In this document: piece after piece, positions 10,074 through 41,110 of the stretch
Layout of the letters: each line of letters starts with the position of its first letter
Position numbering within the stretch: position 1 is the stretch's first letter
Assembly: GCA_964658305.1 (NCBI GenBank)
Contig: OZ210885.1
Span: 6,882,001 to 6,946,000, forward strand
Source of the DNA: Leptogorgia sarmentosa
Taxonomy: Eukaryota
Reading direction: 5' to 3'
Length of the DNA: 64,000 nucleotides
Program-made: the position numbers and the translations under genes
The notes under the pieces: model-generated
What the model was told of the DNA's origin: nothing
Databases searched by the model: none
The model's input: only the letters and a program-made list of their open reading frames with translations

Positions 10074-12385
10074 ATTTTTAATAAAAGCCCACATGACAGA
10101 AATCGCCAAGGGGAATCAAATATTTACATATTTACATGAATACTCCATGTTCTAAATCAATAAATGTATCTTATTGTTCACTACTCTCGCTAATACACTA
10201 CGGACACACCATCTTACTTAAAATTGTTCTATGCTTAAAATATATTGTTCCATTTTCAACCTGGTTCGCACATAGTTTGTAAAATACAGTTCACAGTCGA
10301 TTTTCTCGTCTTTCTTGAATTGATACGATACACGCTGCTTCCACGCCGCGAACTTCCCCACACTCACCAGATACCGCAATAAATCCTTTGTTCGCCTTTG
10401 CGGAAAACAACCAAGTAAGATACTCTTCTCCCCGAAACCTACCACCGTTGGGTCAATCCGATTGCATAATGTCAATATAAAAGACCATAACTTCGCGATC
10501 CGCGGACAGTGAACTAACGTGTGCTCCAATGTCTCCACCCGAGCCCCACAGCAAGCACAGGCTGCCGATATCCGGGAATTCCATTGACTCATTCGTACAT
10601 TAACTGGTAAAACCCGATGAACCGTTCGCCAATCAAAATCCCGCAGCAGGGGATCATTCCAGCTTCCCGCAACCTCTTTCCAAATCTCATTCCACCTCAA
10701 CCCCGGGCCAAGCTGGCGATTCCAGATGTCCTCACATCGAGCCCGAACCGGGGTGACACAATTTCGAATTTTCTCCCCATAGAACGCATGTGATGACCGA
10801 CGACAAGAAATGTCCACATTAAACTCACGCAAAACACGAAGAAAGTGACTATAAAAAGGTGTTGGTATGTCACAATTTGGACGAGTGTTATCATTAAATC
10901 CCAGCATTCGATTTACGTAGTATCTCATCAGCTCTTTCCACGCGCAGTCTGGCTGTTCGGCGTCCAACAAACGAAAAAGCCGACCAATCAGGAGGGCTTT
11001 GCTCCTTGACCCCACATCCACAATGCCCAGACCACCAGCTGCATAACCTGACGTACATGTTTCTCGCCTCACCAACTCAGGTTTTTTAGACCACACAAAC
11101 TTCCAAATCGCCGACTGGATGGTATCGATAACTTCTCGGGATGGCGGATACACCTTCGCTACATGCCAGATGGTGGACACAGCAAGACTTTCAATAACCG
11201 TTTTTTTCCCCCTCAAAGTTAGGAAGCGAGATTCCCATTTCTTTAGTACCGAGTTAAACTTCGCTGTCACCTCGTCCCTGGACTTTGCACGTGCGTTTTC
11301 ATCCCCAAAATACAACCCAACTATCTTCAAACTCGAGCTTAGCCACGAAATACCACCAGGAGAGTCTTCTCTCATTCGCCACCGTCCAAGCCACAACCCA
11401 TGAGTCTTGGAGGTGTTCAGACGGGCACCCGAGGCTCGCCCATATTCATGAAAAATGTCGATCACTTTTAAAATGCCATACGAGTTGGTAACAATACAGG
11501 TATTATCATCTGCATACTGCGAAATTTTTACCTCACGACCTCCCGGAATCCGAAAACCGCTAATCTCGGAGCTTTTTCGAATCGCCTGCCCAAACACCTC
11601 GGCCACCAGTACAAACAGCAACGGGGATAGCGGACACCCTTGCCTTACGCCTCGCGCTACTTGAAAAGACGGAGAGACATATCCATTGGGCAAAATAGCA
11701 CTCTGGATATCTGTATATATACACTTGATCATTGCTCTAAATTTAGGCCCAAAGTTCATCTTTGCCAAAACCCGACCTAAGAAATCCCAGTCTACGTAAT
11801 CAAATGCTTTTTCCTGATCCATGGATAGAAAAGCACATGCCTGCCGTTCATGAACCTCTAGATAATCCGTGATGTCCCTTAAAATCGTTGCATTATCCTC
11901 ACTGGACCTCCCAGGCACCGAACAACACTGGTCCGAATCCACGACACTTGACATAACCGGCTTTACCCGATTAACCAATACTTTGGTGAGAATTTTGTAG
12001 TCCACATTCAGCACCGAGATAGGCCTCCAGTTTTTTAGGTATTCCGGATCATTCTTCTTAAACAGCAGTGTAATAATGGCCTGTCTCAAAGTGTCTGGCA
12101 TTACTCCATCCGAAAGACAATTGTTCAGCATCTCGAGCAAGTCGTCCTTCAGCAACTCCCAGAAGCACATGTAGAACTCTTTTGGAAGGCCATCCGACCC
12201 TGGCGTTTTCCCATTACGAAGTGTCTTTAATGCCGCAAGGCACTCCCCCTCAAGGAGATCACCTTCACAGGAGTTACTTTGTTCATCCGACAGCTTTCTA
12301 TCCAGCAGATCGAGCAAACGATCCTGGGCGCCCCGATCTGTAGGGACCGCGGAATATAATTCTTTATAAAATCGAACCTAATTCA
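10074..12385 (-). mobile_element. Tx1-clade non-LTR retrotransposon copy A, lacking ORF1 and endonuclease, inserted in U5 loop 1
   Basis: RT plus C-terminal zinc finger, 3' end ...GGGCTTTTATTAAAAAT, flanked by the two halves of U5. Confidence 0.92.
10218..12377 (-). CDS. Tx1 ORF2 C-terminal part (RT and zf-RVT)
   Basis: KTPGSDGLP, WRPISVLNVDYK, DQEKAFD, RQGCPLSP, QYADD, CACCG..ETLEHTLVHC. Homology to copy B extends back to VRFYKELY at ~12377. Confidence 0.92.
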   Translation of the reverse strand, partial: VRFYKELYSAVPTDRGAQDRLLDLLDRKLSDEQSNSCEGDLLEGECLAALKTLRNGKTPGSDGLPKEFYMCFWELLKDDLLEMLNNCLSDGVMPDTLRQAIITLLFKKNDPEYLKNWRPISVLNVDYKILTKVLVNRVKPVMSSVVDSDQCCSVPGRSSEDNATILRDITDYLEVHERQACAFLSMDQEKAFDYVDWDFLGRVLAKMNFGPKFRAMIKCIYTDIQSAILPNGYVSPSFQVARGVRQGCPLSPLLFVLVAEVFGQAIRKSSEISGFRIPGGREVKISQYADDNTCIVTNSYGILKVIDIFHEYGRASGARLNTSKTHGLWLGRWRMREDSPGGISWLSSSLKIVGLYFGDENARAKSRDEVTAKFNSVLKKWESRFLTLRGKKTVIESLAVSTIWHVAKVYPPSREVIDTIQSAIWKFVWSKKPELVRRETCTSGYAAGGLGIVDVGSRSKALLIGRLFRLLDAEQPDCAWKELMRYYVNRMLGFNDNTRPNCDIPTPFYSHFLRVLREFNVDISCRRSSHAFYGEKIRNCVTPVRARCEDIWNRQLGPGLRWNEIWKEVAGSWNDPLLRDFDWRTVHRVLPVNVRMSQWNSRISAACACCGARVETLEHTLVHCPRIAKLWSFILTLCNRIDPTVVGFGEKSILLGCFPQRRTKDLLRYLVSVGKFAAWKQRVSYQFKKDEKIDCELYFTNYVRTRLKMEQYILSIEQF

Positions 12386-12387
12386 CT

Positions 12388-12454
12388 TTCCTCCAAAAAA
12401 AATCTTTAGTAAAAGGCGAAAGATTTATACGCGGATTGAAGGAAAACCAGAGTT
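12388..12454 (-). ncRNA. RNU5: U5 snRNA 5' part upstream of Tx1 copy A, including duplicated target sequence
   Basis: AACTCTGGTTTTCCTTCAATCCGCGTATAAATCTTTCGCCTTTTACTAAAGATTT(TTTTT)GGAGGAAA. Confidence 0.92.
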
Positions 12455-13072
12455 TGATAACTACCACAAACTTTTTCACGGATCTTAAACTACAAACCAC
12501 GTCCTTTCGCTTGTGGGCCACAGAATTGAACCCACGCAAAGCTTGTGGGATGGATGTTACGCATGCGCAGTTACAAAAAAATACTTGTATTCTACATGCA
12601 ATTATCGTAGAGTATAAACTTTTATGTTGTATGTGGCAGTGACGCCAAAACTGGCGTACTTAATGTACTGAATTGTAAAATAAATCATATATATATATAA
12701 AACCATATGAAAAGCGATTTAAAATGTTTAAATAATTCAACAGTGGCTTTGGCCACACTAGAACATAGAGCATCATTTGGTTGGAAAGCATCAGATCTGT
12801 GACTTCCTTTCACTGGCCGAATAGAAACACGTGCAGTCAAAATAAAGTAAGACTGGATTGACAAGAAAGAGTGACAGCATTCCATAATCCACCATCCATA
12901 AATGATTCTTTATTTTCGTTTTAGAAACAGTTTAATAAAGGAAGCGGTTTAGTAAAGTAAGCCTCGTTCAAAGTCCGACCTTTTGCAGTCAGCCGCACAC
13001 TCTGTCGCAAATCCAGCCGCATAATGTTTTATAAAACTGTTTAATGTTCGTTTGGTAATTTTGTAGGGTAAG

Positions 13073-13156
13073 ACCCCGCCGGTAAAGCAGGGTGAAGAAA
13101 AATTAGTCTATAGACTCATTCTGATGTTCTCCTCCACGGAAATCTTTAGTAAAAGG
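13073..13156 (-). ncRNA. RNU5: U5 snRNA 3' part (gene interrupted by Tx1 copy B)
   Basis: CCTTTTACTAAAGATTTCCGTGGAGGAGAACATCAGAATGAGTC..., AATTTTTC, terminal hairpin. Confidence 0.93.
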
Positions 13157-13342
13157 ATTTTTTAATAAAAAGCCCACATAGTGAAAATCACTAAGGGGAA
13201 TCTTTAAATTCTTACACAGTAACCATTACATATTAGCACGAAAGAACACATATTGACACACTTAAATTACGACCTATTTTAACACGCGATAACATCACGA
13301 AAGTTCAACTAATCGAATGTCACTGCATAATGTCACTCTATT

Positions 13343-16300
13343 CTAGATATAAATAGTAACATTGTCCGCCGTTACACATGCTATAACACTCTTTATGCAC
13401 CACTTACGCTCAAATTGTTCCAACGTTAACATACACTGTTCCATCCTTAAACGATTACGCACATAATTTTGAAAGTAAAACAGACAGTTAATTTTCTCGT
13501 CTTTTTTGAACTGATAAGACACCCGTTCTTTCCACGCGGAAAATTTCCCCACACTAATCAAGTACCTCAACAGATTCTTGTTCCTTTCTTCGAAAAACCG
13601 CCAAAAAACAATTGCCTCTCGGAGAGACCCACAACCGTTGCATCAATACGATTACACAACTTCAATATAAACTCCCACATGTCAGCAATCATGGGGCAAT
13701 AAACCAACGCGTGTTCGAGAGTTTCCACTCGGGCTCCACACCGCGCACAGCTCGATGGTATATGTGAGTTCCACTGATGCATTCGAGAGCTTACAGGAAT
13801 GACGCGATGAATCGTTCGCCAATCAAAGTCACGCAAGAGCGGATCGTTCCAGCTGCTTGATACTTCTTGCCACACATTCTTCCATACAAGCCCTGGACCA
13901 AAGTGACGGTTCCAATCTACCTCACACCGTGCTTGTACCGGAGAGATACTATTTCGCACGCGCTCATCGTAATAAGCCTTTGGAGTCTTTGGACGCGATA
14001 AGACCACATCAAATTCACGCAGAACGCGAAGAAGGTGACTGTAAAATGGTGTTGGTACGTCCGAATTCGGTCTCGTATTATCGTTAAAGCCTAACGATCT
14101 TGCAACATAGAACCGCATCAGACACTGCCATGGACACACTTCCTTGCTGGTATCAAGAAATCTGAAGACCCGACTAATCAATAACGCTTTGCTTTTCATC
14201 TGAAGGTCAATAATCCGAAGGCCACCATGTTGATGATCCGATATACACGTCTCCCGTCGCACGAGTTCTGGTTTTCCAGACCACACAAATTTCCAAATTT
14301 GGCTCTGAAGAGAGTCCATCATTTCACGAGACGGCGGATATATCTTCGCCACATGCCAAAGTGTTGATGCAGCTAAACTGTTCAAAACCGTTGCTTTGCC
14401 ACGTAAGGTCAAGAACCTGGACTCCCATTTCTTAATTACACCAGAGAATTTCGCCGAAACATCCTTCCACGAAGCAATCTTAGCATCGTCTGAACCAAAA
14501 TGAAGCCCAACGATCTTCAAGGACGTATTCACCCACGTCAGACCACATGGAGAATCTGTACGAGAACGCCAGCGACCCAACCAAAGTCCTTTGGATTTGG
14601 ATGTATTCAACCGTGCCCCAGACGCCCGACCATATTCGTTGAAGATGTCAATAACTTTGAAGATGCCATACGTGTTAGTAACTACGCACGTGTTGTCGTC
14701 AGCATACTGCGAAATTTTCACCTCTTTACCACCAGGAAGACGTACCCCTTGCACCTCTGGGCTTTTGCGAATTGCCTGACCAAAGACTTCAGCAACCAAC
14801 ACAAACAGGAGCGGGGAAAGAGGGCACCCCTGGCGCACTCCACGCTCCACATCGAAGAACTCGGATGGATATCCATTGGACAGAATGGCACTTTGAATGC
14901 TATTATAACAGCATTTGACGATTGAACGAAACTTCGGACCAAAGTTCATCGTTGACATTACCCTGTCCAAAAACTCCCAGTCGACACTATCAAATGCCTT
15001 CGCTTGATCGATCGATATAAAGGCACACGCAGCTCGTTCACGAACATCTAAGTAGTCACAAATATCGCGTAGAAGGAAGGCATTATCCTCGCTCGACCGC
15101 CCCGGCATGGCACAACACTGGTCTGGGTGAACCACCACGGACATGAGCGGCTTAATACGTTGTACCAACACTTTGGTGAAGATTTTGTAATCTACATTTA
15201 ACAGCGAGATTGGGCGCCAGTTCTTGAGAAGCTCAGGGTCATCTTTCTTATAGAGCAGAGATATGAGTGCTTGACGCAAGGACTCCGGCATAATGCCCAT
15301 GGTGTCACATTCATTCACCATCTCGACAAAATCCTGCTTCAAAATGTCCCAAAACGTAACGTAGAATTCTTTAGGCAGACCATCGGATCCTGGGGTTTTA
15401 CCTGCAGATAAAGACTTCAAAGCGACATAGCATTCGGCCTCAGTGACAACACCTTCACACGAATCACGTTGTTCCTCTGTCAACTTCCGATCTAGCAGGT
15501 TCAACAAACGATCTTGTGCTTCGCTGTCCGTTGGCACTTTCGAATACAATTCTTTATAGAAACGCACTTGTTCTGCCATGATGCCAGCTTGATCAGTTAC
15601 TGTCCGCCCATCTTGCGTACGCAACGCCTGACAAGTTTTCTTGACCGCCCGCTGACGTTCTTTTTGAAAAAAGAATCTCGAAGGCTGTTCGTTGGCTTCA
15701 ATCCACTTTGCCTTGCTACGCAGTTGGTTTCCACGAATACGCTGATAATCTAAAGTCATCAATTGCGATTTAACTTGTTCCAGTTCTTCCGCATCCGTGG
15801 AAGACAAAGGGGCACGAGCGAGCAAACGACGGTAAGTATTTAATAATTGCGCACGTTCTTGTGTCTTCCTCCTAGACATCGCCCTTCCACATGACATCAG
15901 TATCGATTTAAGACGATATTTCCCCGTATCCCACCATTCGCCGATGTTGCTGAAAAACTGTTTCTTATTTTGCCATTCACGCCAAAACGTTACCACTTTC
16001 TCCCGCACCCAATGTTCACTGAGCAAGGACACATTCAATTTCCATACTCCAGGACCAATGTTATTGCTTGACTGAACCACATTTAACGAGACCCGAACCA
16101 AATCATGGTCAGAATGTGGGTAGGCTATAATTTCACTGTCCACAAGAAAGTCTTTTAAAAGAGAAGATGTGACATAAAACTTGTCCAAACGACATTTGAT
16201 TGTTCCAAACTTGTTTTGCCACGTAAACTGTCGATCATTCGCATGTTGCTTCCGCCACACGTCAACGAGAGCAAATCTGGTCAATAATTTCTTTAAAAGG

Positions 16301-16797
16301 GGAACACCCGTACTACCCAACGTCGAATTTCCTCCGAGTTTGTCTTTGTCCAAGTCGAACATACAATTGAAATCCCCTCCCATGATGATGCGTCTCCTCG
16401 TAACCAGATGCCTATCAAAGGTTTGGAAGAATTCAATGCGCTGACTGCCATCAGTCGGGACATAAACACTAAGGAAGCGGAAATCCTGCTTCTGAATGGT
16501 ACAATCGAACGTGACAATCCGTCCATCACTATCACAGCGAAAACTACAGTTCTTAAAACGAGAGTGATCTCGAAGTAAAATTCCGACACCACAAGAATTA
16601 GTTGCACCCAGGCTCCAATAACCCTTGAAACCTGACTCACGATTCCAACGAATACAGTCCTCTACGGTGGCAATATGCGTTTCTTGAAGGAACATCACAT
16701 CGAAACTTGACGATTTTAAGAAATCAAATAATACTAATCGTTTCTTCTCAGCTCTGATTCCGTTAACATTCAACGTGATAATAGAAAGGTTCGCCAT
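13343..16797 (-). CDS. Tx1 ORF2: AP endonuclease, reverse transcriptase, zf-RVT. One frameshift near 13580
   Basis: TLNVNG, FLQETH, GGDFN, RLDKFY, SDH; RQGCPLSP, QYADD; CARCG..ETLEHALVYC. The C-terminus continues in ORF 13343-13570 (RYLISVGKF), which matches copy A. Confidence 0.95.
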
Positions 16798-16809
16798 CAA
16801 AATGTCCGG

Positions 16810-18168
16810 TTATTTCTTCTTCTTCGTTCGTTTCTTCTTGTGAGGTTTTGACCGAGCAGCCACAACACCAGCACCAACCCGTGCCGGTTCTACTTCCCCG
16901 TCCTCCGGCACTTCCTCAGGCAATGCCAATTCCGTATCCGCCTTTCTCTTGTTGTGATCCATTGCAACTGTTGCATCGACCTTTGGGGGTCCGCGGGGTA
17001 GGAAGAGTGGGTCCTCATCACTGGATACATCACCCATTTCCACATTTTCACTCTCGGATGAATCGCCGTTGCTGCTTGGTGGTGGGTCATTCGCCGCCGA
17101 CTCACGTGAATCATTAGCCGCCGAGTCACGTTGCTCGTTGTCATCGACCATTTCAGTATCCCGAGGAACTGAACTGTTCGTGGGGCACTCGGCCCTTAGA
17201 TGACCAAAGTCGCCACAGAGAAAACACTTGAAACATTGCCGGCGGACGTGTCCGTCTTTCCCACACCGAAAACACTTGACTTCGTTAATACAAGTAGCAA
17301 CTCTATGACCAAACAAGCCACATCGCCCGCATTGAGGAACTTGGCCACGATAACGCGTCTCGACCGGGTAGGGACCAATGAAGAAACGCCGAGGTATACC
17401 TTCAACTAGATCCAACATCGTTACAATTCTTGCCCCCGATTCCACAACAGCCCAATCACGATACATCTCACGGTTCACATTGACAACCTTGCCATACTTC
17501 GCCAACGATTCCGCCACAGCTTGGTTTGTTATTTCATTAGGAACGAACAATACTTTAACCTGCAAGGTGGGGGCATCAATCTCTTGAGCAATAATCCGCT
17601 CTCCCCTGAGCAGGATAGGATGATTTAAAAATAGCTGCTTAGCCTCGTATGTACGAAACGTGAGTCGATACCGCGGACCTGGAACTTGCTGGAGACATTT
17701 AATTGTCTCCAGTGCTGTATGCTTTAGAATAGCCTCCATCACCTCACGAACAGTAATGTTTTTAAAAGCTTGCGTATGTAAGACAACTGTATTCGGCCTT
17801 GGGACTCGTCCTCCCGAGAGGAAGGTCGGGAGAGGGACTGCATTTCCACGACCAGCCTGTACATCATTTCGCGCAGCAACTACATCTGCCCAGGATTGTC
17901 CACCAATTCCATCCGATACGCTACGTCCAGCATCACCACTGCGTCCAGACACCGCATCAGCAGGAACACGCCTTTCACCAGCTTCACCGGTCATCTCAAC
18001 ACCATTCCGCTGTTCCCTTGTACTGTCGCCTTCAACCCCTTCTCCAGCGCCCCCACGGCCTGAAACCACAGCTGCACGACTTGTAGTTGTATCCCCAACA
18101 GCACGACTTGAATCCCCAACAGCTGCTTCTACACCAGCACGACTTCCTTGATCCAATTTCTCCTCCAT
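16810..18168 (-). CDS. Tx1 ORF1 gag-like nucleic acid-binding protein
   Basis: RRM-like region, CGRCGLFGHRVATC, CFRCGKDGHVRRQC, CFLCGDFGHLRAEC, basic C-terminal tail. Confidence 0.92.
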   Translation of the reverse strand: MEEKLDQGSRAGVEAAVGDSSRAVGDTTTSRAAVVSGRGGAGEGVEGDSTREQRNGVEMTGEAGERRVPADAVSGRSGDAGRSVSDGIGGQSWADVVAARNDVQAGRGNAVPLPTFLSGGRVPRPNTVVLHTQAFKNITVREVMEAILKHTALETIKCLQQVPGPRYRLTFRTYEAKQLFLNHPILLRGERIIAQEIDAPTLQVKVLFVPNEITNQAVAESLAKYGKVVNVNREMYRDWAVVESGARIVTMLDLVEGIPRRFFIGPYPVETRYRGQVPQCGRCGLFGHRVATCINEVKCFRCGKDGHVRRQCFKCFLCGDFGHLRAECPTNSSVPRDTEMVDDNEQRDSAANDSRESAANDPPPSSNGDSSESENVEMGDVSSDEDPLFLPRGPPKVDATVAMDHNKRKADTELALPEEVPEDGEVEPARVGAGVVAARSKPHKKKRTKKKK

Positions 18169-18207
18169 GCGAAAGATTTATACGCGGATTGAAGGAAAAC
18201 CAGAGTT
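18169..18207 (-). ncRNA. RNU5: U5 snRNA 5' part directly abutting the ORF1 ATG of Tx1 copy B
   Basis: AACTCTGGTTTTCCTTCAATCCGCGTATAAATCTTTCGC|ATGGAGGAGAA. Confidence 0.92.
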
Positions 18208-18300
18208 TGATATCAACCACAAAGTTTTTAACGGATCTTAAACTACAAACCACGTCCTTTCGCTTATGGGGCGCAGAATTAAACCCACGCATGCGCACGC
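18208..18300 (-). promoter_or_regulatory. Putative U5 snRNA promoter (PSE-containing). Conserved upstream of all four full U5 5' ends (also 12455-12570, 40124-40214, 40874-40988)
   Basis: Shared CCCA(C/T)AAGCGAAAGGACGTGGTTTGTAGTTTAAGATCCG...TGTGG block and upstream TGCGCATGCG. PSE role inferred from position only. Confidence 0.6.
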
Positions 18301-18498
18301 ATTTAACGTATCAGCAAGAAAGTATGTAGTCTCAAAGCTGACAATTACGAAGACTAGAGGCTTTCAGTCTGAAACATTTCACTTTGTTGAATTGGAACAC
18401 GCCGTGGTTAAAAAAAATGCCAATTATTAAAATGGTGAAACAATGAATTGAAACAATGAATCGAATCTTATTAATCCAATTATTTTGTATGGTAAAAA

Positions 18499-18590
18499 CA
18501 CCCCGCTGTTAGGCAGGGTCACGAAAAGTTAATCTATGAATTCATTCAGTTATTCTCCTCCACGGAAGGCGAAAGATTCATACGTGGAAT
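18499..18590 (-). pseudogene. U5 snRNA pseudogene (5' truncated, 13-nt deletion in loop 1)
   Basis: TCTTTCGCCTT^CCGTGGAGGAGAA... Same lesion in the paralogue at ~39833-39925. Confidence 0.85.
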
Positions 18591-20872
18591 GTCAAATTCA
18601 ACGCCGCCATTGACAACCACGAAGCGAAAAAGTGACAATTTTCAAACCCTGATTTTGACCTTAAAATGATGCCTTTTTTACTTCATTTTAAGCTAAATAT
18701 CTTTTAAATAGATTGAAATTTAATATTTAATAATTTTTTTCGCGCATCGATGGAGTTTGAGAGGTTTTGATGCACGTCGAAAATGAAAATGATTTTTTTT
18801 GAAATAATTTCGGTACAATTAAGAGTGGTACCAGAAACGTTATCTACACAGACAGACGTGAATCACACTGAGCTATACAAAAACATGGTTTTTAGGCATC
18901 AAAACCCTATATTGCGGCTCAAAACAACGTATTTTTGACATTTTTTTTCAAAAACCAAGGTTTTGTTTAAAAATTAAAACCAAGGTTTTGTTTACAATAT
19001 ACTCTCCCCAGGCCCACTGAAAGTCCGAAGCCGAAAATAACACCATTCGAAAAACGTCGATTTATTCATGTTTTAAATGATATAAAGCAGCAATAAAACG
19101 TTTAAAATCAAGAAGGATACTTGGCGTTTATTGCAAAATAGGTTTGGGACTGTCTAAACGTTTCAAAATATATATTTTTGTCGGTTGAAGAGCAAAGTTT
19201 TTTTGACACACCAAAACATTTGCCATTTTTTTGAGATATAGAAATAAAAATGCTCACTTTTTGCGGCAGACGGACGTAAAACAGTTGGAACTTAACAGGA
19301 AACCTGGTATGAATCCAAAACATCGATGTTTTTCTGCTAAAAACCGTGTTATTTCTTGCCATTTATGCTCATAAACAAGCCGGGTGAAAAAATTCTCGCT
19401 CCTTAGAACTCTCCCCAGTCCTTTCCAGGTGATCTCGATACACGGAAAAGGACTGGGACTAGTGGTCAAATAGAAATCCATTTTCCGATTGGAACAACTG
19501 AATATCTCCCATAAAATACTTTATTTCGATTCCATATTTTTGTCAGAGCTATAGTTCTCATAACCAAACACAATTACAAAATTTCAGCTGGTTTCATCCC
19601 GAATAACTAAAGATATAATTGAGTGAATATAGCAAAATGGATTTCTATTCAGGCAACCCTTTCTGGGCGCCGATTGGCTAAAACACGAACACGAGATCAC
19701 CTGGTTTGAATGTTAATTTTCTTGCCCGCCGACATCAGCCAATCATAGGACAAATCATAGGAGTTATCGTTCCAGGTATTAATATAGTTCACCGCCTTAA
19801 CCACTCGGCCACGACTACGTTGCTACAACCAACAGGTTTCGCGTTGTAGAACAAACATTCACATCTACAACATCTACTCTGAGGTGACCGCGTGGGACGT
19901 AGGCCCAAGGTTGCTTGGGAATAATATGGATTCTTTTGGGTGTTTCTTTCTTGATAATATAGATAAAAGTATTACTCGAGTACTGAGTTACTCCCAAATC
20001 ACAGTGCAATTTTGTGTAATCACAGTGCAATTTTCAGTGTAATCACAGTGTGCAATTTCTTGTTATCACAGTGAAATTTTCTGTTATCACAGTGCTTTTT
20101 AATGTTATTACTTTCAACCAATCAAATTAGAGCTCAAGCTACAGTTTGCTTCAAAACAAAACAAACATGGCGGCCGCGCTATGCAAAGCAAAAATTATCT
20201 TCGGTTCGCAAATATAGCTTTTATCTTTTTCTTATAACGGAAAAAACGACAGTTGTCTCCAATACTTTTCTGCAAACTATTAACTTGTAATAGTGTGGTT
20301 TCTCGTGAATTCGGATAAAAATGCACTCGTGAGGTTTCCAACGACCTCCAGTTGCACTCGTCTTTGGGACTGTTTCTAATTTGAGATCTTTGCAAAACTC
20401 ACTGGTGCATATTAATTCCAAATCATCGCCAGAAATCGTCACCACGCGAATTAATTATACTCTCCCCAGCCTACTTCATTGCGCGAGATATATAACAAAA
20501 ATAATAGGAAAACATATACAAGGCAACATTTATTCTTAAAATACAGATTTTTAGTACAGTTTGAACGATTTGTGAACCTCAGACGTGAATAGGAAACTTA
20601 TAATCTAAGTTAGAATCCAAAATTTTGTTGGAAAATTTTAAAAAAGTTCTTTTTTTTATAACGTGAATTTTTATACCAGAAAGTGGCACAAACGCGAGAC
20701 AGCTAATATAAACCCTATTAATTTGATAAAATATGTCAACTTAATTTCCAAATTTAAACGAAATAATAGGGCTAGGGAATGGAGTCAGACGCGCTACCAA
20801 TTGCGCCACAAGATCGTAGCGCTGTTGAAATGGTTTGGAATTGCATAATTTTTCCTTCTCTCGCAAGTATTA

Positions 20873-20944
20873 TTCCCATGCCGAGAATCGAACTCGGGTC
20901 TTGGCGGTGAGAGCGCCACATCCTGAACACTGGACTACATGAGA
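20873..20944 (-). tRNA. tRNA-Glu(CTC), several substitutions
   Basis: TCTCATGTAGTCCAGTG..TGGCG-CTCTCAC-CGCCA...GTTCGATTC..CATGGGAA. Confidence 0.75.
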
Positions 20945-21040
20945 GAAACATTTGTCTTTTCTCGCAATGTGAAAATAACGATAACATTTTTAATTTGAAT
21001 TTGGAAGAAAATTTCGAGAGACAGCGTGCCCAGAAGTGCT

Positions 21041-21122
21041 TGACCTTGAAGTGAATTGAACACTTAACCTTCTGATCTTTCTGATCTGGAGTCAGACGCG
21101 CTACCAATTGCGCCACAAGGTC
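21041..21122 (-). pseudogene. tRNA-Trp(CCA) with a 9-nt internal duplication (AGATCAGAA)
   Basis: Otherwise identical to the intact copies at 38002 and 43859. A 5'-half fragment also lies at ~20781-20815. Confidence 0.8.
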
Positions 21123-21208
21123 GTAGCGCTGTTAAAATAGTTTGGTTTCAGAGAACGAGTTGGAGAATGTGAACACAAGCTGCTTCAAATTGAAATTTCC
21201 AGAAAAAA

Positions 21209-21280
21209 TCCCCTAGCCGGGAACCGAACCCGGACCATGGCGGTGAAAACGCCAGATCCTAACCACTAGACCACATGGGA
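21209..21280 (-). tRNA. tRNA-Glu(TTC), degenerate acceptor stem
   Basis: TCCCATGTGGTCTAGTGGTTAGGATCTGGCGTTTTCACCGCCA... Confidence 0.75.
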
Positions 21281-21364
21281 GTGATAACTTGTTGACTATT
21301 CCTGTGTTACAAAGCCAGTTATTTTCTCGTGTTGCAGTTGACATGCAACAAAATGAAAATAATC

Positions 21365-21435
21365 TGCGTTAGCGGGGAATCGAACTCCGGTCTCCCGCGT
21401 GGCAGGCGAGAATTCTACCACTGAACCACCAACGC
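21365..21435 (-). tRNA. tRNA-Gly(GCC)
   Basis: GCGTTGGTGGTTCAGTGGTAGAATTCTCGCCTGCCACGCGGG...CTAACGCA. Confidence 0.88.
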
Positions 21436-21993
21436 AAAGTTGCCCAATTTTTTCGTTATAATGTTCATATTCCACAAGATGCCGAACATTTGCACGAAAC
21501 ACCTTCAAATAATAAATCAGAGTAATTTCTAGGAAATTGTTACACTTTAAACATGATCAACAAAATCAATTTACGTGACGGAGGCACACATTATTTTATT
21601 GGAATTTTCCCAATTAATCGCAGTTAAAATCGAACGATTTTAAAACCATTGCGAATTTTCAATAGTCATCGGAAATATTGTGTTTATGTGTTTTTTATAT
21701 TATCTTGTTAGTGTTTGGTAGGGTTAAATTTGGGGATTGCTATACATTTCTTGTAGTGCACTGGTTACTACACGTGCTTCTAACACTGCAAGGACCCCAG
21801 TTTAAATCTGGCAAGATACCTAATAAATACCGAATACTGAGAATTAGCCGGTGCTTTCTGACCAATCAGGAACTAGAATAAATATTAAATGTATAATAAC
21901 GCAGATTATTTTCATTTTGTAGCATTTCAATTTCAACCGCAACACGAGAAAAAAACTGGCTTTGTAACACAGGAATAGTCTACAAGTTATCAC

Positions 21994-22065
21994 TCTCATG
22001 TGGTCCAGTGGTTAGGATCTGGCGTTTTCACCGCCATGGTCCGGGTTCGATTCCCCGCGTGGGAA
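21994..22065 (+). tRNA. tRNA-Glu(TTC), inverted duplicate
   Basis: TCTCATGTGGTCCAGTGGTTAGGATCTGGCGTTTTCACCGCCA...GTGGGAA. Confidence 0.8.
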
Positions 22066-22359
22066 TTTCTTCTGAAAATTTCAATTTGAACAGCTTGTGT
22101 TGACATTCTCAAACTCTGCTGTTTTACTAGACCAGTGTTCTAACCCCTGAACTAAAGAGGCAACTTCTTCCCTATTGAAACTCAGAACATAAATCCAATT
22201 ACAGAGTTAATTAAACTTAATTTCCCGGATTATCACGTGTTTTCATGAAATAAACTCACTTGAAAATTTAGTTTCAGGTCACACTTATACAAAATGGAGA
22301 GCCAACTGCATTCCTTGTAACCAATCATAAAAAGGAAGTGAATGAATACTTATTGATAC

Positions 22360-22432
22360 AGCCTCATCAGAGAATTGAACTCTGGACCACTGGTTTACGA
22401 AACCAGTGCTCTAACCCCTGAGCTAATGCGGC
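22360..22432 (-). tRNA. tRNA-Thr(CGT)
   Basis: GCCGCATTAGCTCAGGGGTTAGAGCACTGGT-TTCGTAA-ACCAG...GATGAGGCT. Confidence 0.8.
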
Positions 22433-22591
22433 GACATGCTAAAATAATCTGTATGTACCTAGCATGTTTTTTCCGACATAGTACTCTTTCAATACCTTTT
22501 TTATTTCATCAGATTTAACTCACTGAACAGCACATGGAATACAATCTGCGCGTTTGTCTTCTACGTCCTTCAGTGTTTTCAAAGAAAATAA

Positions 22592-22664
22592 AGCCTCATC
22601 AGAGATTTGAACTCTGGACCCCTGGTTTACAAGACCAGTGCTCTAACCCCTGAGCTAATGAGGC
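22592..22664 (-). tRNA. tRNA-Thr(TGT)
   Basis: GCCTCATTAGCTCAGGGGTTAGAGCACTGGT-CTTGTAA-ACCAG...GATGAGGCT with a perfect acceptor stem. Confidence 0.9.
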
Positions 22665-22907
22665 AACTCAAAAGCTTGCTGTAGAATTATATTACTTTAC
22701 CATCCTGCACTGCTGTGATGTTTCAAAAAGGTAAAAATGCGAGTGAAGATTATGCACCTGTTTTCATTCTTTGTAAAACGTTACCATTTATATTCTTTGA
22801 TTGATTTATAATAACGAATAGATTTCAAACTAGTAAGGGGTACTCTGAGTTCCACTTTATAATTATTTCGCATTCTCAAAACTAACTTTTTGATAACGAT
22901 ACTTTTG

Positions 22908-22975
22908 AGCCTCATCAGAGATTTGAACTCTGGATCCCTGGTTTACAAGACCAGTGCTCTAACCACTGAGCTAAT
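22908..22975 (-). pseudogene. tRNA-Thr(TGT) lacking the 5' acceptor strand
   Basis: Same body as 22592; the 5' GCCTC is replaced. Confidence 0.78.
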
Positions 22976-23466
22976 AACGAGAGGGAAATAAACGGCACCG
23001 ATGAAAGAGTTTACTACTTTACTTCAGAATAGTCAACAAATAATACTTGATAGTAATGCGCAGGATTTTCAAGTCTGGGAAATACAGATTTTCAAAAGCT
23101 TACTAACACTAAATTCAAGTGGAATTTCCTACCACATTTATTCTTTGCCACCTTCAACATGCCACATTCCATTCTAATTCTTTCCCTTGAGAATTTGCCT
23201 GACCCAAATACGTGAAAGGGGTACACATTATTTTATTAGAACTTTTTCTATAATTCCAGTTTAAAACAAACGATTTTAATACAAAGTCTTTCTTGGCATG
23301 TTTCATAACCTTAAAACAATAAAAAACGCCACTTCTTTCTCTTGATTTTGTAGATGGAATTTAAGCATTCAGCCATCACCACCGAGAACAGAATTTCCTC
23401 TCCTAGAGTTTTTCCCCAAAAAAATCGTGTTTGAATTCGAGACGGAAATATTGAAAATATGCATAA

Positions 23467-23548
23467 CGTTGTCGGCAGGATTTGAACCTGCGCGGGAAAC
23501 TCCCAACAGATTTCCAGTCTGTCGCCTTAACCGCTCGGCCACGACTAC
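23467..23548 (-). tRNA. tRNA-Ser with anticodon GGA (variant, possibly pseudogene)
   Basis: GTAGTCGTGGCCGAGCGGTTAAGGCGACAGA-CTGGAAA-TCTGT, long variable arm. Confidence 0.8.
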
Positions 23549-24026
23549 GTTGCTACAACCAAAAGGTCTCGCGTTGTTCAACTTAACGTTGACGTCACAG
23601 GCGCGGATCCAGACCGTGGCGAAAGTGGCTCGAGCATCGGTCAGATTTTTCTTTCTCAGGAATTCCCGACATTAACCGTTTTTTTGATAGTAGAAAAAAT
23701 ATTCTACGCGATTCTAATCATTCTATGTTAATTATTTGGCAGCAGCAAAAATAGGTCTATGGCAAGCAATTCAAACCAAATATTTCCCAGTTATTCTTAT
23801 GGATTCGTGCTCACAAAAAGGAAAAACGTCCAAAATATTTCCTTCTTCAATAGTATAATCATTAAAATGTATACGTTGAATTGTATGCATCATACGCTGG
23901 CAAGTTTATGAAAAGATCGGGTCCTTAGAAATCATTCAATGAGCAAACCCAGGCTAAAATTTATCAGTGGAAATATTGTTGTGGATACAAAGTAGAAAGA
24001 TTGCGCCGTACGGAGTGACATGCGAT

Positions 24027-24085
24027 CGTAGTCGGCAGGATTGTACCTGCGCGGGAATTTCCCAACAGATTTCAAGTCTGTCGCC
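24027..24085 (-). pseudogene. tRNA-Ser(TGA) 3' fragment
   Basis: GGCGACAGACTTGAAATCTGT...CCTGCCGACTACG without the 5' part. Confidence 0.7.
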
Positions 24086-24420
24086 GTTGTTGTGGGACTC
24101 GTTTTGTGAATTTCATTGCGCATGCGCGCGTACGTCAAAATTTGTTTTCTTAGTGTTTTTCAACATCCCAGACATTGTAAAAGTGTTAAAAAGCAAGAAT
24201 AGTCAAGGAATTTGAGATGTTTAAGTGAAAAAAACCCGAAAATAATTCGTCAAGGGTCCTACCATCCGCACAGAACGAGTCTGGTAGATCGCCAGTAGGG
24301 ACTTACTAAGGCAACCGGAACGCATCGGGGATGCCCGCTATCTCCTCTCCTAGAGCTTTTCCCCAAAAAAATCGTGTTTAAATTCGGGACGAAAACGCAT
24401 ATGCATACGAATATGCATAA

Positions 24421-24502
24421 CGTTGTCGGCAGGATTTGAACCTGCGCGGGAATTTCCCAACAGATTTCAAGCCTGTCGCCTTAACCTCTCGGCCACGACT
24501 AC
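24421..24502 (-). tRNA. tRNA-Ser(TGA)
   Basis: GTAGTCGTGGCCGAGAGGTTAAGGCGACAGG-CTTGAAA-TCTGT... Lies within a duplication of ~23395-23705. Confidence 0.82.
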
Positions 24503-24658
24503 GTTGCTACAACCAACAGGTCTCGCGTTGTTCAACTTAACGTTGACGTCACAGGCGCGGATCCAGACCGTGGCGAAAGTGGCTCGAGCATCGGTCAGAT
24601 TTTTCTTTCTCAGGAATTCCCGACATTAACCGTTTTTTTTATAGTAGAAAAAATATTG

Positions 24659-24906
24659 AGTTTCGAATCGTTCCGTACTGATTGGGGTCAACTTTTGTAA
24701 GCACAGCTGGTTTTATAAAATTATCAACAAAAAAGTCCTCCAAGACTTTCGACACAATCGTGCTAAGGGAAATGGGCCGAAAGTGGCGGTTAACATCGCG
24801 TACTGGGTCTTTTTTCGGAATTGGTACAACATCAGCGTGTTTCCAAGATTGTGGGAGACCTCCTTTGCGACACGACGTATTTACAATTTCTGCAATGGGA
24901 ATGGTG
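24659..24906 (-). mobile_element. Fragment of a CR1/L2/Jockey-type LINE reverse transcriptase
   Basis: My translation of the minus strand: PIAEIVNTS...PQSWKHADVVPIPKKDPVRDVNRHFRPISLSTIVSKVLEDF...DPNQYG. Confidence 0.8.
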
Positions 24907-25103
24907 CAAAAATATCAGCATTTAATTTCTTTAAGGCGACCTTCCCTGCTCGCTTTTTAAATGTTACATAATGCCTTCCCGCTATAAATACTTTTGTTTT
25001 CAAAGATTTTCAGCGAAAATTGCGTCGGCACCAAGAAATGTGTACGTCCAATTAGAAAATGTACAGTCAAAAGACTTTCGAAAAACAATCAACATGATTT
25101 GTT

Positions 25104-25427
25104 ATGTCAGCGTTTCTCATGTCAGCGCTTTCCATGTCAGCGTTTTCCATGTCAGCGTTTTCCATGTCAGCGTTTTCCATGTCAGCGTTTTTCTTGTTAG
25201 TGTTTTCCATGTCAGCGTTTTCCATGTCAGCGTTTTCCATGTCAGTGTTTTCCATGTCAGCGTTTTCCATGTCAGCGTTTTCCATGTCAGCGTTTTCCAT
25301 GTCAGCGTTTTCCATGTCAGTGTTTTCCATGTCAGTGTTTTCCATGTCAGCGTTTTCCATGACAGCGTTTTCCATGTCAGCGTTTTCCATGTCAGTGTTT
25401 TCCATGTCAGCGTTTTCCATGTCAGTG
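25104..25427. repeat. 15-bp minisatellite (ATGTCAGCGTTTTCC), ~21 copies
   Basis: Direct tandem repeat. Confidence 0.95.
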
Positions 25428-27467
25428 TCAGTGTGTCAGTGTCAGTGTTTTCGAGATAACCCTTAGGGACGGGTGGTAGGGGAGTGAATTGATTTGGCTT
25501 TATTTAATTGCAACTTGTGCTCTGGATTCGGACGATAGTATTGATATTTGCAACATGAAGTTAGAAATAAAAGAACTCTCAAAAAATCGTATTTGTTATG
25601 CAAATACTTCCTGTGTAATATTGAGTGTCAAGTTACATTTCGCGACGCAAGTTGGATCAGATTTCAATAGACAACAGGGCCAGAGGCGCTTGAAGAGGAA
25701 AGCCGATATTTCACCGTACGAACATATTGTATAAGCAAGCTATGAAAAACAAACTATGAAATATACATATAGGAGCAACGTATACATAGGGACATACATA
25801 ACTTAGCGATTCAGCCTCGTTTTCGAATTTACTGACTTTATGCTTCGCAAAAACATGTATTATTTATAGATCATCATGTTTGGTTGTACAGTTAAATTAC
25901 TGTAAAACAATTCATAATACATATTCAGACAACTATGAATTTCGCAAATTTTTATTTAACAAATAAACCCATGCATACAATGTTAAATACTACAGTGTTT
26001 GTCTATTTGTGCCAGTGTATTATGCATGCAATTTTAAAAGAAAAGTTCTTTCAAACTAGTTAATTGTTGCCCTTATAACAATTAAAGAAACAATTCTGAA
26101 CATGTCATGCAGAACTTAATTTATACCAATAGTCAAGTCAATTTTGTACGTCCACGCTGTATCTGTGATTATACTACTGAATGGCATCACATTTCAAGCA
26201 TGTAATCATGCATACGTTATAAACGTGGAGTAAAGCATAACTTGCTAATTTCCAATACGGAAACTTCGTATTTAGATTGATAAGAAGAAAAACGTGCGCA
26301 TGAGCAAAACGGACTTGACTACAGATTTAAATGTCTAGGAAACAAGTAACCAGATTTTTAATAAGCTAGCGTAGTAGCCATAGCTACAAATTATCTCTAA
26401 ATTATTACAATCATACAGGGTGTACGTACTGTATATACATCTACAACCTTTATAATGAAAATGTGCAAATAAGATAAGAAAGTTAAGAATTAAGAAAGTT
26501 AAGAATTTAAGTTATATGTTACCAGATTACATGATACCAAAGAAAAAACCAAATGGCATCATGCAACAAGCTGAATTAAGCGAGATCGATGTCCAATGTA
26601 TTGGAATTTTGGAGGCATATATCAAGACATAAACATGATGCCTCCTTTCACGTTCTGAAAAACAACTATAATAAAATATAAAGTAAGGATTAGAAAATGG
26701 AACACAAAGCAATCTTAAAGCAATCGTGAACTATAGACAGAGTTTAATTTTATTATATTCTGACTACAATGGGACAATAGGAGACGGAAACTTTATTGCT
26801 CACATTTACAACTTTGACTTTTTTATTGTTATAAAAAACATCCTGATTTAGGACCACGCTATACTCCATGCAGGTAAAAATATTTGGAATTCTTAGTTTG
26901 TAATGTTGCAAATATGGCAAATTTTAATTGTAATTAAAGCAATTAACTTTTAGTTAAATTGAACCCGGTAATTAGGTTTGTTTAGTGAAAAGTAGCTAAT
27001 TAATGTTAACTGCATTTATAAAAAATAGCAAAAGTGTTTTATATTTTTTCCTCATTATAGTTTAGCGAAAACAATTTGTTCTTTCTTTGGTTATATTGAG
27101 GCATTTCTACAATATTTCATGGACGAATTCCATTCTATCTGTCATCATAATGTGGCCGGATATAGCTACAACAGCAAAACTTTATCTACTTTTCTATAAA
27201 CAAATTACAGTAAATGATGCAATAAAGGGCTAGGGCTGTTATGTATCTTAGGAAGAGGTCTTTATAGATTGCTAAGACTTGTCGATTTTTAGACACGGAA
27301 ATTTTATGTTCCCTAAACATATAAAGTTCCCTAAATTATAAAATTGATTGAGGTGTGTTTTACAATCATGGAGATTACATGGGAGTAGGCTTTTTTTCAA
27401 ATCATTTTCGGTATTTTCTGCTTTATGTTAAAATTATTTACCTTATGGCATTGTTGAAGTATAGGTT

Positions 27468-33789: not shown

Positions 33790-34735
33790 ATCGACGTTGA
33801 ATCGACGTCGATAACCTGACCTCATATCGACGTCGACAAATTGACCTCGTTTCGACGTTGAATCGACGTCGTTAACCTGACTTGATATCGACGTCGACAA
33901 ACTGACCTCGTTTCGACGTTGAACCGACGTCGTTAACCTGACTTCATATCGACGTCGACAAACTGACCTCGTTTCGACGTTGAATCGACGTCGTTAACCT
34001 GACTTGATATCGACGTCGACAAACTGACCTCGTTTCGACGTTTAATCGACGTCGTTATCCTGACTTAATATCGACGTCGAAAAATTGACCTCGTTTCGAC
34101 GTTCAATCGACGTCGTTATCCTGACTTAATATCGATGTCGACAAATTGACCTCGTTTCGACGTCCAATCGAAGTCGTTATCCTGACTTAATATCGACGTC
34201 GAAAAATTGACCTCGTTTCGACGTTCAATCGACGTCGTTATCCTGACTTAATATCGACGTCGAAAAATTGACCTCGTTTCGACGTTCAATCGACGTCGTT
34301 ATCCTGACTTAATATCGACGTCGACAAATTGACCTCGTTTCGACGTCCAATCGAAGTCGTTATCCTGACTTAATATCGACGTCGAAAAATTGACCTCGTT
34401 TCGACGTTCAATCGACGTCGTTATCCTGACTTAATATCGACGTCGAAAAATTGACCTCGTTTCGACGTTCAATCGACGTCGTTATCCTGACTTAATAACG
34501 ACGTCGAAAAATTGACCTCGTTTCGACGTTCAATCGACGTCGTTATCCTGACTTAATATCGACGTCGAAAAATTGACCTCGTTTCGACGTTCAATCGACG
34601 TCGTTATCCTGACTTAATAACGACGTCGAAAAATTGACCTCGTTTCGACGTTCAATCGACGTCGTTATCCTGACTTAATATCGACGTCGAAAAATTGACC
34701 TCGTTTCGACGTTCAATCGACGTCGTTAACCTGAC
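33790..34735. repeat. 61-bp tandem repeat (~15 copies), left subterminal array
   Basis: Unit TATCGACGTCGAAAAATTGACCTCGTTTCGACGTTCAATCGACGTCGTTATCCTGACTTAA. Confidence 0.95.
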
Positions 34736-37018: not shown

Positions 37019-37341
37019 GTGTGCTTACTGGGTGTGCATTAGCAGGGATGTTGTACGGGGGCCGGTTGTTCGTACGTCGTTTAGCTTAAACGGCGGATAA
37101 GTCCAGAATATCAAACAAGACTATGTATTCATTGAACGATCAAAAAAAAATCCTTGAATCTGAAAGGAATATTTATGTATACAATTATATATTCAGTGTT
37201 CAAAATTTATGTTCAATTATTCACATTATAATGTTGATATTCCACAAGAAGCCGAACATTTTCACCAAACACCTTCACATAATAAATCAGAGTAAGTTCT
37301 AGGAAATTGTTACACTTTAAAATTGAAATTTTCAGAAAAAA

Positions 37342-37413
37342 TTCCCACGCCGGGAATCGAACCCGGGCCATGGCGGTGAAAACGCCAAATCCTAACCACT
37401 AGACCACATGGGA
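37342..37413 (-). tRNA. tRNA-Glu(TTC)
   Basis: Intact cloverleaf TCCCATG...CGTGGGAA. Confidence 0.9.
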
Positions 37414-37497
37414 GTGATAACCTGTTGACTATTCCTGTGTTACAAAGCCAGTTTGTTTCCAGTGTTGCAGTTGAAATGCAACAAAATGAAAATAATC

Positions 37498-37568
37498 TGC
37501 GTTAGCGGGGAATCGAACCCCGGTCTCCCGCGTGGCAGGCGAGAATTCTACCACTGAACCACCAACGC
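37498..37568 (-). tRNA. tRNA-Gly(GCC)
   Basis: Intact cloverleaf. Confidence 0.92.
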
Positions 37569-37840
37569 AAAGTTGCCCAATTTATTTGGTCATAATGTTC
37601 ATATTCTACAAGATGCCGAACATTTGCGCAAAACACCTTCAAATAATAAATCAGAGTAAGTTCTAGGAAATTGTTACACTTTCAACCTGATCAGCAAAAT
37701 CATTTTTTTTTTGTGGAAAAGAAAGATGTCAACAAGGACTTAAATACAGAAAACACCAAAAGAATGGTAAGAGGGATAGAGCTAGTATAATAGCAATGGT
37801 TTTGCTAATTTCTCGAACTGCATATTTATATACATACTGA

Positions 37841-37904
37841 TCGGGAATCGAACCCGGGCCTTGGCGGTGGGAGCGCCAGATCCTGACCACTGGACTACAT
37901 GGGA
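37841..37904 (-). pseudogene. tRNA-Glu-body pseudogene (anticodon CCC, 3' acceptor strand lost)
   Basis: TCCCATGTAGTCCAGTGGTCAGGATCTGGCG-CTCCCAC-CGCCA..GGTTCGATTCCCG, then unrelated sequence. Confidence 0.8.
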
Positions 37905-39925: not shown

Positions 39926-40214
39926 TTTTACCATGCAAAATAATTCGATTAATAAGATTCGATTCATTGTTTCAATTCATTGTTTCACCATTTTAATAAT
40001 TGGCATTTTTTTAACCACGGCGTGTTCTAATTCAACAAAGTGAAATGTTTCAGACTAAAAGCCTCTAGTCTTCGTAATTGTCAGCTTTGAAACTACATAC
40101 TTTCTTGCTGATACGTTGAATGCGTGCGCATGCGTGGGCTTAATTCTGCGCCCCACAAGCGAAAGGACGTGGTTTGTAGTTTAAGATCCGTGAAAAACTT
40201 TGTGGTTGATATCC

Positions 40215-40336
40215 AACTCTGGTTTTCCTTCAATCCGCGTATAAATCTTTCGCCTTTTACTAAAGATTTCCGTGGAGGAGAACATCAGAATGAGTCTATA
40301 GACTAATTTTTGTTCACCCTGCTTTAACGACGGGGT
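40215..40336 (+). ncRNA. RNU5: U5 snRNA, intact (empty-site paralogue of the copy B locus)
   Basis: AACTCTGGTTTTCCTTCA...TCTTTCGCCTTTTACTAAAGATTTCCGTGGAGGAGAAC...AATTTTTG Sm site, 3' hairpin. Confidence 0.95.
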
Positions 40337-40988
40337 CTTACCTTACAAAATTACCAAACGAACATTAAACAGTTTTATAAAACATTATGCGGCTGGATTT
40401 GCGATAGAGTGTGCGGCTGACTGCAAAAGGTCGGACTTTGAACGCGGCTTACTTTACTAAACCGCTTCCTTTATTAAACCGTTTCTAAAACGGTTTCGTG
40501 CATGTGTTGAGGCGTACTGAAAATAAAGAATCATTTATGAATGGTGGATTATGGAATGCTATCACTCTTTCTTGTCAATTCAGTCGGATTTTATGTTGAC
40601 TGCACGTGTTTCTATTCGGCCAGTGAAAGGAAGTCACAGATCTGATGGCTTTCCAACCAAATGATGCTCTATGTTCTAGTTAGGCCAAAGCTACTGTTGA
40701 ATTATTTAAACATTTTAAATCGCTTTTCATATTGTTTTATATATATATATATATATGATTTATTTTACAATTCAGTACATTAAGTACGCCAGTTTTGGCG
40801 TCACTGGCACATACAACATAAAAGTTTATACCTTTCGATAATTGCATGTAGAATACAAGTATTTTTTTGTAACTGCGCATGCGTAACATCCATCCCACAA
40901 GCTTTGCGTGGGTTCAATTCTGTGGCCCACAAGCGAAAGGACGTGGTTTGTAGTTTAAGATCCGTGAAAAACTTTGTGGTTGATATCA

Positions 40989-41110
40989 AACTCTGGTTTT
41001 CCTTCAATCCGCGTATAAATCTTTCGCCTTTTACTAAAGATTTCCGTGGAGGAGAACAACAGAATGAGTCTATAGACTAATTTTTCGTCACCCTGCCTAA
41101 CGGCGGGGTG
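40989..41110 (+). ncRNA. RNU5: U5 snRNA, intact (empty-site paralogue of the copy A locus)
   Basis: Invariant loop 1 GCCTTTTAC, Sm-like AATTTTTCG, hairpin CACCCTGCC/GGCGGGGTG. Confidence 0.95.

Follow-up and report, generated by a model that had tools for sequence, protein, structure and literature searches.

A Tx1-type LINE that splits a U5 snRNA gene begins its first open reading frame in U5-like sequence and is likely transcribed from the U5 promoter

Introduction

The promoters of small nuclear RNA (snRNA) genes lie upstream of the RNA, hence the interest in how retroelements associated with these genes are transcribed; for SINEU, which is headed by snRNA sequence, transcription is called an open question in the relevant passages of Kojima (2015; PMC4494074). 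The window described here (the whole stretch of DNA that was analysed, 64,000 nucleotides) poses the question for a LINE inserted in a U5 gene: from which promoter would such an element be transcribed when nothing of its own precedes its first open reading frame (ORF1), and where did its start codon come from? According to the original prediction, made from the letters of this stretch, the host U5 promoter drives a U5-LINE chimera whose first codons copy one strand of a U5 stem.

Results

Two copies of a U5 gene pair, one of them interrupted by LINEs

The window consists of AT-rich animal DNA in which tRNA genes and U5 snRNA genes are clustered. Two U5 genes form a pair that is present twice, the two copies being inverted relative to each other; one pair is intact (40214 and 40988, plus strand) and the other is interrupted by LINEs (9990-18208, minus strand). 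The flanks of the empty pair align with 18169-19229 and 12400-13156. The features of the first interrupted gene and of its empty counterparts are as follows.

40214..40337, plus strand: empty U5a paralogue, the pre-insertion reference (Rfam, 87.8 bits)
40988..41110, plus strand: empty U5b paralogue (Rfam, 91.3 bits)
18209..18293, minus strand: U5 promoter-proximal block, putatively containing the proximal sequence element (79 of 85 bases common to empty U5a and U5b)
18169..18208, minus strand: 5' part of the U5a gene, nt 1-40, matching the Rfam-called U5 genes at 40214 and 40988; the presumed 5' leader of the element RNA
18158..18168, minus strand: ORF1 start codon, with 10 nt identical to U5 nt 60-69 in the 3' strand of stem I
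16810..18168, minus strand: ORF1, 452 amino acids, start MEEKL (Pfam zf-CCHC)
13342..16797, minus strand: ORF2, with APE endonuclease, reverse transcriptase and zf-RVT (Pfam)
13157..13341, minus strand: 3' UTR of the full-length LINE, with a terminal hairpin common to the second LINE family
13072..13156, minus strand: 3' part of the U5a gene, nt 40 to the end (loop I, Sm site, terminal stem-loop)

Over the first 85 bases upstream, empty U5a and U5b agree at 79 positions; beyond that they diverge, a pattern that fits a proximal promoter region. The U5a-type region upstream of the interrupted gene matches that of the empty paralogue at 40214 in 96 of 100 and 290 of 300 bases. The 3' part of the interrupted gene aligns with empty U5a with 93 matches, four mismatches and two gaps, and is also a partial Rfam hit.

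Other features of the window were recorded. A U5 pseudogene that has lost its 5' end together with 13 nt of loop I lies upstream of U5a in both duplicates (18482-18591, minus strand; 39856-39941, plus strand), so that loop I has been lost there without any LINE. A BEL/Pao LTR retrotransposon (2167-7482, minus strand) is in three ORF pieces with DUF1759, RT, Peptidase_A17, integrase and DUF5641 domains, and a tRNA fragment (7496-7557) adjoins it. The tRNA gene clusters lie in shuffled duplicated blocks (20800-24700, 37300-38900 and 43100-44300); ARAGORN called 21 tRNA genes, among them a tRNA-Trp of 82 nt at 21041-21122, the others being 73 nt. There is a near-perfect palindrome of 752 bp at 60423-61174 (96.8% self-inverted) among repeats at 59800-62500; a MITE-like 454-bp repeat with internal inverted repeats at 9035-9487 and 52338-52784 (95% identical); and tandem repeats at 33791-34735 and 24971-25459, comprising a 61-bp array and a 15-bp repeat that gives rise to a spurious ORF of 162 amino acids.

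The full-length element has the architecture of a Tx1-type LINE

The full-length LINE (13157-18168, minus strand) splits its U5 gene at nt 40 and is in sense orientation. ORF1 consists of a Gly/Ser-rich repetitive N-terminus, a conserved core, CCHC zinc knuckles and a basic tail; it has 32 homologues, of which the named ones belong to the octocoral Paramuricea clavata, making an octocoral the likely host. Several public proteins of Paramuricea that bear the name ZCCHC3-like (P0003, P0019, P0021, P0246 and P0247) resemble the ORF1 of this LINE group, the first three with 44-52% identity to the window ORF1.

ORF2 follows after a spacer of 12 nt and gives Pfam hits to Exo_endo_phos, RVT_1 and zf-RVT, with no RNase H hit; an NCBIfam search returned nothing beyond the Pfam calls. 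It matches L1 ORF2p at an E-value of 6e-86 and is 95% identical to full-length proteins of 1152 amino acids. The window copy is frameshifted by 1 bp near 13575, where contigs of all four of four runs have one extra base, and the frameshift is either an assembly error or a private mutation.

Assignment to Tx1 is based on architecture, namely a CCHC-bearing ORF1 with a separate ORF2 that combines APE, RT and a C-terminal zinc motif, together with a sequence-specific target: both LINEs in the window end at U5 nt 40, and relatives also adjoin U5 (P0038, P0201 and a contig designated X12). An indirect indication is 34% identity to P0120, which its source names Transposon TX1 149 kDa. The target is U5, not the U2 of Keno, and the endonuclease is of the APE type and not the restriction-like type of the R2 clade. 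No HDV-like ribozyme was among the four Rfam hits at E-values up to 1 between positions 9800 and 18900.

The 3' ends of the two LINEs carry similar predicted hairpins (13157-13200 and 10074-10115, minus strand) in which bases have changed between families with pairing kept, followed by a short A-run and T and no poly(A) tail. Such ends suggest read-through into the U5 3' part.

ORF1 starts directly behind U5 nt 40 and its first codons match a U5 stem strand

On the minus strand, U5 nt 1-40 occupy 18208-18169 and the ATG of ORF1 starts immediately after, at 18168, with no element sequence in between (nucleotides are numbered from Rfam model position 1, from which the true start site may differ). 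The leader of the original prediction, which is 39 nt when counted from its own starting base, corresponds to these 40 nt. Its statement that the element lacks a 5' UTR is borne out, and P0038 and probably X12 are similar. The U5 leader holds no ATG and has an in-frame TAA 9 nt before that of ORF1; the second in-frame Met of ORF1 is codon 59, that is, 58 codons downstream as predicted. The U5 3' part restarts at 13156, leaving a 1-bp overlap and no real target site duplication (TSD) at this copy.

The 10 nt that begin with the T of the ATG (TGGAGGAGAA, 18167-18158) are identical to U5 nt 60-69. This sequence is found at six places in the window and, outside 18167-18158, only in U5 or U5-like copies. 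In 200,000 resamplings of ORF1 codons 2-90, the chance of a match of at least 10 nt to U5 nt 40-85 was 2e-5, rising to 8e-5 if codon 2 is E or D. The first codons of ORF1 resemble U5 beyond chance, in agreement with the predicted stem-like start.

It had further been proposed that these codons could pair with the leader and rebuild a U5-like stem over the AUG. The stem does appear in both the minimum free energy (MFE) and centroid folds of the first 70 nt, the A of the AUG being unpaired and the G paired, with pair probabilities of 0.34-0.96 that vary with the length folded. Its energy is no better than that of shuffled sequences (-14.4 kcal/mol, z -0.49 for 70 nt; z +0.89 for 120 nt), compared with z -3.11 for native U5 1-83, and we rejected it as a selected structure. 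An extension of the stem by pairing with U5 stem Ia was also rejected, with contigs from runs X1 and X4 differing at base 18153. The folding models do not support a regulatory role for the stem, which is probably a weak by-product of U5 origin.

The U5-like start is found in some relatives, and a sister family retains loop I

We asked whether the U5-like start is a trait of the family. In the sister family, a Met homologous to window Met1 is present in P0001, P0034 and P0038; the proteins start MEDES or MEEES, loop I is retained, and about 20 nt separate U5 nt 40 from the Met. P0038, which is 86% identical to the window ORF1, has an N-terminal extension that is an in-frame translation of U5 (SPFTKDF), loop I included: U5 nt 1-56, about 4 nt (one Leu codon, L) and then MEDES. 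A contig from organism C (X12, record 9, depth 50) matches ORF1 and ends in U5 nt 2-19. If its N-terminus is P0001-like, with which two internal offsets of the record agree, the distance from that U5 match to the ATG would be 40 nt in this contig, compared with 21 nt in the window and 41 nt in P0038, and the X12 ATG would lie some 19-20 nt after U5 nt 40.

More distant relatives gave a mixed picture. P0201 belongs to a family with 60% identity and contains a translation of U5 in a different frame (IFRLLLK), followed by five residues and FGENHR. It has no Met at the U5-like position, which counts against our reading of the locus given below, and for most members of its family the called start is a Met some 11-17 codons further on. 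The relatives P0008, P0059 and P0223 have MDENHR or MDENYR at the start, where U5 in that frame reads VEENNR. Over codons 2-6, these starts are a minimum of two base changes away from U5 (computed for P0008 and P0223), a distance of two or fewer being found in none of 111 distant ORF1-like starts, 86 ORF2 starts and 664 internal windows. Of the 17 starts scored, 15 need four to seven changes and overlap the controls, so that most ORF1 families are only loosely U5-like, which also counts against our reading; the window start itself needs five despite its 10-nt match. The N-terminal extensions of P0270 and P0403 are not U5. Among 423 proteins compared, U5 peptides stand at the N-terminus in two, a small sample at the DNA level; one more five-residue match, inside an ORF2, was taken as chance.

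These comparisons bear on whether the U5 likeness is coincidental, produced by an acidic N-terminus and a G at +4, with the absence of a UTR as the only real observation. Most families do start M-E or M-D, and in a distant family (P0394 and P0399) MEEEQE follows an upstream frame that is not U5, so that acidic starts can arise without U5; for the 7-8-nt matches of the sister family to U5, the chance is 0.7-3.5% given E or D at codon 2. Coincidence would nevertheless have to account for the 10-nt match at 8e-5 with codon 2 already so conditioned, for MDENHR at two changes against none of 861 control peptides, and for a third U5-like segment at the junction of the second LINE (below), and we consider it very improbable.

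The original prediction offered an alternative of its own, an event in a single copy in which a TSD of about 30 bp later lost loop I by chance and acquired its ATG by a G-to-A change. The 10-nt match of the window copy does surpass those of the sister family (MEDES, MEEES), deletions of loop I are known in the locus, and the second LINE matches the U5 variant of its own downstream half over 9 nt. Against this, the sister family, with loop I in place, has the homologous Met and the residues that follow it, the TSD measured at the neighbouring LINE is 17 bp, and a further sample contains the junction at the combined depth of two element variants. As a single-copy event this alternative is largely refuted and we regard it as highly unlikely; the U5-like start likely belongs to the element, and the missing UTR is not private to the window copy. 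The removal of loop I described in the original prediction applies to the window lineage and not to the whole family, since P0038 keeps the loop; its loss is lineage-specific.

Searches of other collections returned few candidates. The U5-translated part of P0038 recovered only P0001. ORF1 alignments gave four loci among metagenome contigs, all 27-amino-acid matches to the knuckle, and none in viral and prokaryote collections. The junction pattern was found at 27 viral loci, none bearing U5 or either ORF, and the U5 core pattern at no viral locus and on four short contigs with intact U5 only; these (L032-L035) are intact eukaryotic U5 genes in four bacterial genome bins and are probably contamination. 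At least four related ORF1 families (including P0004-P0012, P0051-P0060 and P0195-P0250) have many members on shared long contigs, which suggests that several Tx1 lineages are maintained side by side in octocoral genomes.

A second LINE occupies the neighbouring U5b gene

The neighbouring U5b gene is interrupted by a LINE of another family.

12400..12455, minus strand: 5' part of the U5b gene, nt 1-56, including the 17-bp TSD of the second LINE
12378..12399, minus strand: junction segment of the second LINE, 22 nt, U5-like (Rfam U5, 49.8 bits; cut-off 40)
10074..12377, minus strand: second, shortened Tx1-type LINE (66% ORF2 identity; same 3' insertion point)
9990..10073, minus strand: 3' part of the U5b gene

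Its TSD corresponds to U5 nt 40-56, and the 9 nt of the junction segment mentioned above match the U5 variant of its own downstream half. The segment was considered as ORF2 sequence and this was rejected, the family reading MQEQ there (P0083). It may be the family's own 5' head on an internally deleted copy. In that case it would be a MEESE-like start whose first base has changed.

Read contigs share the junction, in part perhaps through duplication of the locus

For a read-level comparison we used contigs from eight of 24 sequencing runs. In run X1 a contig of depth 19.7, matching two N-terminal repeat variants taken together (8.05 + 11.3), spans the window-type junction, with 16 nt of U5 past the junction against a bridging standard of 31 nt. 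It is the one junction type in X1, and no alternative is found among the matches listed in X4; no loose end pointing to a private UTR was found among the 13 entries covered, of 14 for four runs. The junction comparison that had been proposed for all full-length copies returned the same junction in the X1 contig and, in a sister family, a junction that retains loop I.

The N-terminal repeat region of ORF1 (17990-18130, minus strand) is length-variable between copies and species, and its variants total multiples of three (6, 15 and 99 nt), as expected if codons 1-58 are translated. The depth of the element 5' end is close to that of the U5a flank (19.7 versus 20.5 in X1; about 540-640 versus 627 in X4). 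Given a segmentally duplicated locus and similar depths, shared loop-less junctions may be passive copies, and the copies sharing them may be segmental duplicates.

This leads to an alternative in which the U5-like head is element-borne and serves integration or nothing, copies with the loop-less junction were spread as the U5/tRNA cluster underwent segmental duplication, and read-through of the locus or a few active copies elsewhere provide the RNA. The inverted duplicate of the U5 pair in the window, the similar depths in both runs and the loop-I-deleted pseudogene in both duplicates are all in its favour. Duplication accounts less readily for two distinct families at the same nick, in adjacent U5 genes, in sense and behind intact promoter blocks, for the same layout in relatives elsewhere, or for N-terminal length variants that stay in frame. 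We regard this alternative as unlikely.

Discussion

We consider it likely, from comparison of sequences, that this Tx1-type LINE inserted at U5 nt 40 is transcribed from the U5 promoter as a U5-LINE chimera and that its first codons derive from captured U5. Use of the promoter we infer from the anatomy of the locus, and the host-promoter model is directly testable because the LINE has almost no room for a leader of its own. By analogy with R2, an ancestor would have fixed an over-long duplication of U5 downstream of the nick as its own 5' end, in which the GTG of U5 became, or gave way to, the ATG, with loop I lost later in the window lineage. Pol II starting at U5 +1 would produce a capped RNA with U5 as a leader of 40-60 nt; as neither LINE has a poly(A) tail, this RNA probably continues into the U5 3' part. 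At reinsertion, the U5-complementary end of the cDNA would pair with the target and copy the junction of the parent, so that a junction that lost loop I once, as in the window copy, would then be inherited.

LINEs usually have internal promoters, and a promoter in the 5' coding part of ORF1 would give an RNA starting at or near the ATG, with a very short leader or with initiation at Met59. The sister family does retain Met59, and in some other families a Met precedes the SWAD motif. The position of Met1 is also conserved in the sister family, however, the frame from Met1 is open across repeat variants, and the region that would have to hold the promoter is a fast-evolving repeat, unalignable between families. 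Internal initiation therefore appears quite improbable to us, and transcription from the U5 promoter remains our preferred reading.

A bolder version of the U5-promoter reading, which we put forward only tentatively as somewhat doubtful, is that these LINEs are expressed as interrupted U5 snRNAs, starting at the U5 promoter, ending at the U5 3' signal, and with a start codon built from the U5 stem and kept or refreshed by target pairing. If this is true, a retrotransposon mRNA owes its promoter, cap, leader, start codon and 3' end to a spliceosomal RNA gene. If the host-promoter model holds, the locus would be a natural case of an snRNA promoter driving a 5-kb coding RNA and a case of a start codon that arose from the target by capture. 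As a small LINE whose target is defined and lies in a conserved multicopy gene, the element is in addition of interest for site-specific gene insertion.

Published work on the feasibility of such an RNA is mixed. Long RNAs made from a U1 promoter in Xenopus oocytes are described as taking the mRNA export route (relevant passages of PMC2241894), whereas a 1988 paper denies in its title that the human U1 promoter directs mRNA synthesis. Polymerase is also described as terminating readily, both at snRNA genes and close to promoters (relevant passages of PMC11610936), and such early termination speaks against the U5-promoter reading.

With respect to known elements, U5 is already listed among the targets of Tx1, and a U5-targeting family appears in Fig. 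3 of Kojima (2015; PMC4494074); in the available parts of the published Tx1 descriptions no 5' junction, missing UTR or target-derived start codon is described for the U5 family. The relevant passages of two papers on Dada elements name no U5-targeting element. A literature search, to which Kojima and Fujiwara (2004) and Repbase Reports were outside scope, found no U5-derived start codon or snRNA-promoter LINE. U5 is known as a target and, in R2, a target-derived head has a precedent; what appears to be new is a start codon within such a head, together with the probable use of an snRNA promoter.

The window LINE shares with the target-specific Tx1 LINEs two ORFs, an APE-RT ORF2 and specific insertion in a multicopy snRNA gene, and differs from Keno of the same clade in its target (U5 versus U2). 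Utopia inserts at a similar distance, about 39-40 nt into its snRNA gene, and has no TSD in some lineages and one of about 20 bp in others; it has a restriction-like endonuclease, targets U2 as Keno does, and belongs to an unrelated clade (passages of PMC4640811). U6/L1-type chimeric retrocopies and SINEU likewise join snRNA 5' sequence to a LINE or SINE. These are dispersed copies without an snRNA promoter, whereas at this locus the upstream kilobase and the 3' half of the snRNA gene are both in place, matching the empty paralogue; this is not the layout of a template-switch retrocopy.

The closest parallel is R2, which the original prediction had not considered and which offers a precedent for the U5-like head by co-transcript inheritance. 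In the available text of PMC3774820, target sequence in the R2 co-transcript is proposed to anneal to the target, giving uniform junctions and the inheritance of aberrant ones: all earwig copies share a fixed 22-bp duplicate of downstream 28S that differs by three substitutions, and a 7-bp deletion is fixed in springtail copies. The R2 elements of earwig, sow bug and springtail resemble the window LINE in lying in sense in a host RNA gene with proposed reliance on the host promoter, and in having a slightly mutated copy of downstream target fixed at the 5' end (same source). Like a co-transcribed R2, the window LINE lies in sense behind an intact U5 promoter region and has no leader of its own.

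The two differ in that R2 has one ORF and a restriction-like endonuclease, and inserts in 28S rDNA, which is transcribed by Pol I, its RNA being freed by an HDV-like ribozyme. At the U5 locus the promoter is of the Pol II snRNA type and its RNA would be capped; no ribozyme was detected, and the start codon would come from the captured sequence. Judged by this analogy, the observations fit best with a life cycle like that of R2 but on an snRNA gene transcribed by Pol II; if true, this extends the R2 strategy from rDNA to the Pol II snRNA genes.
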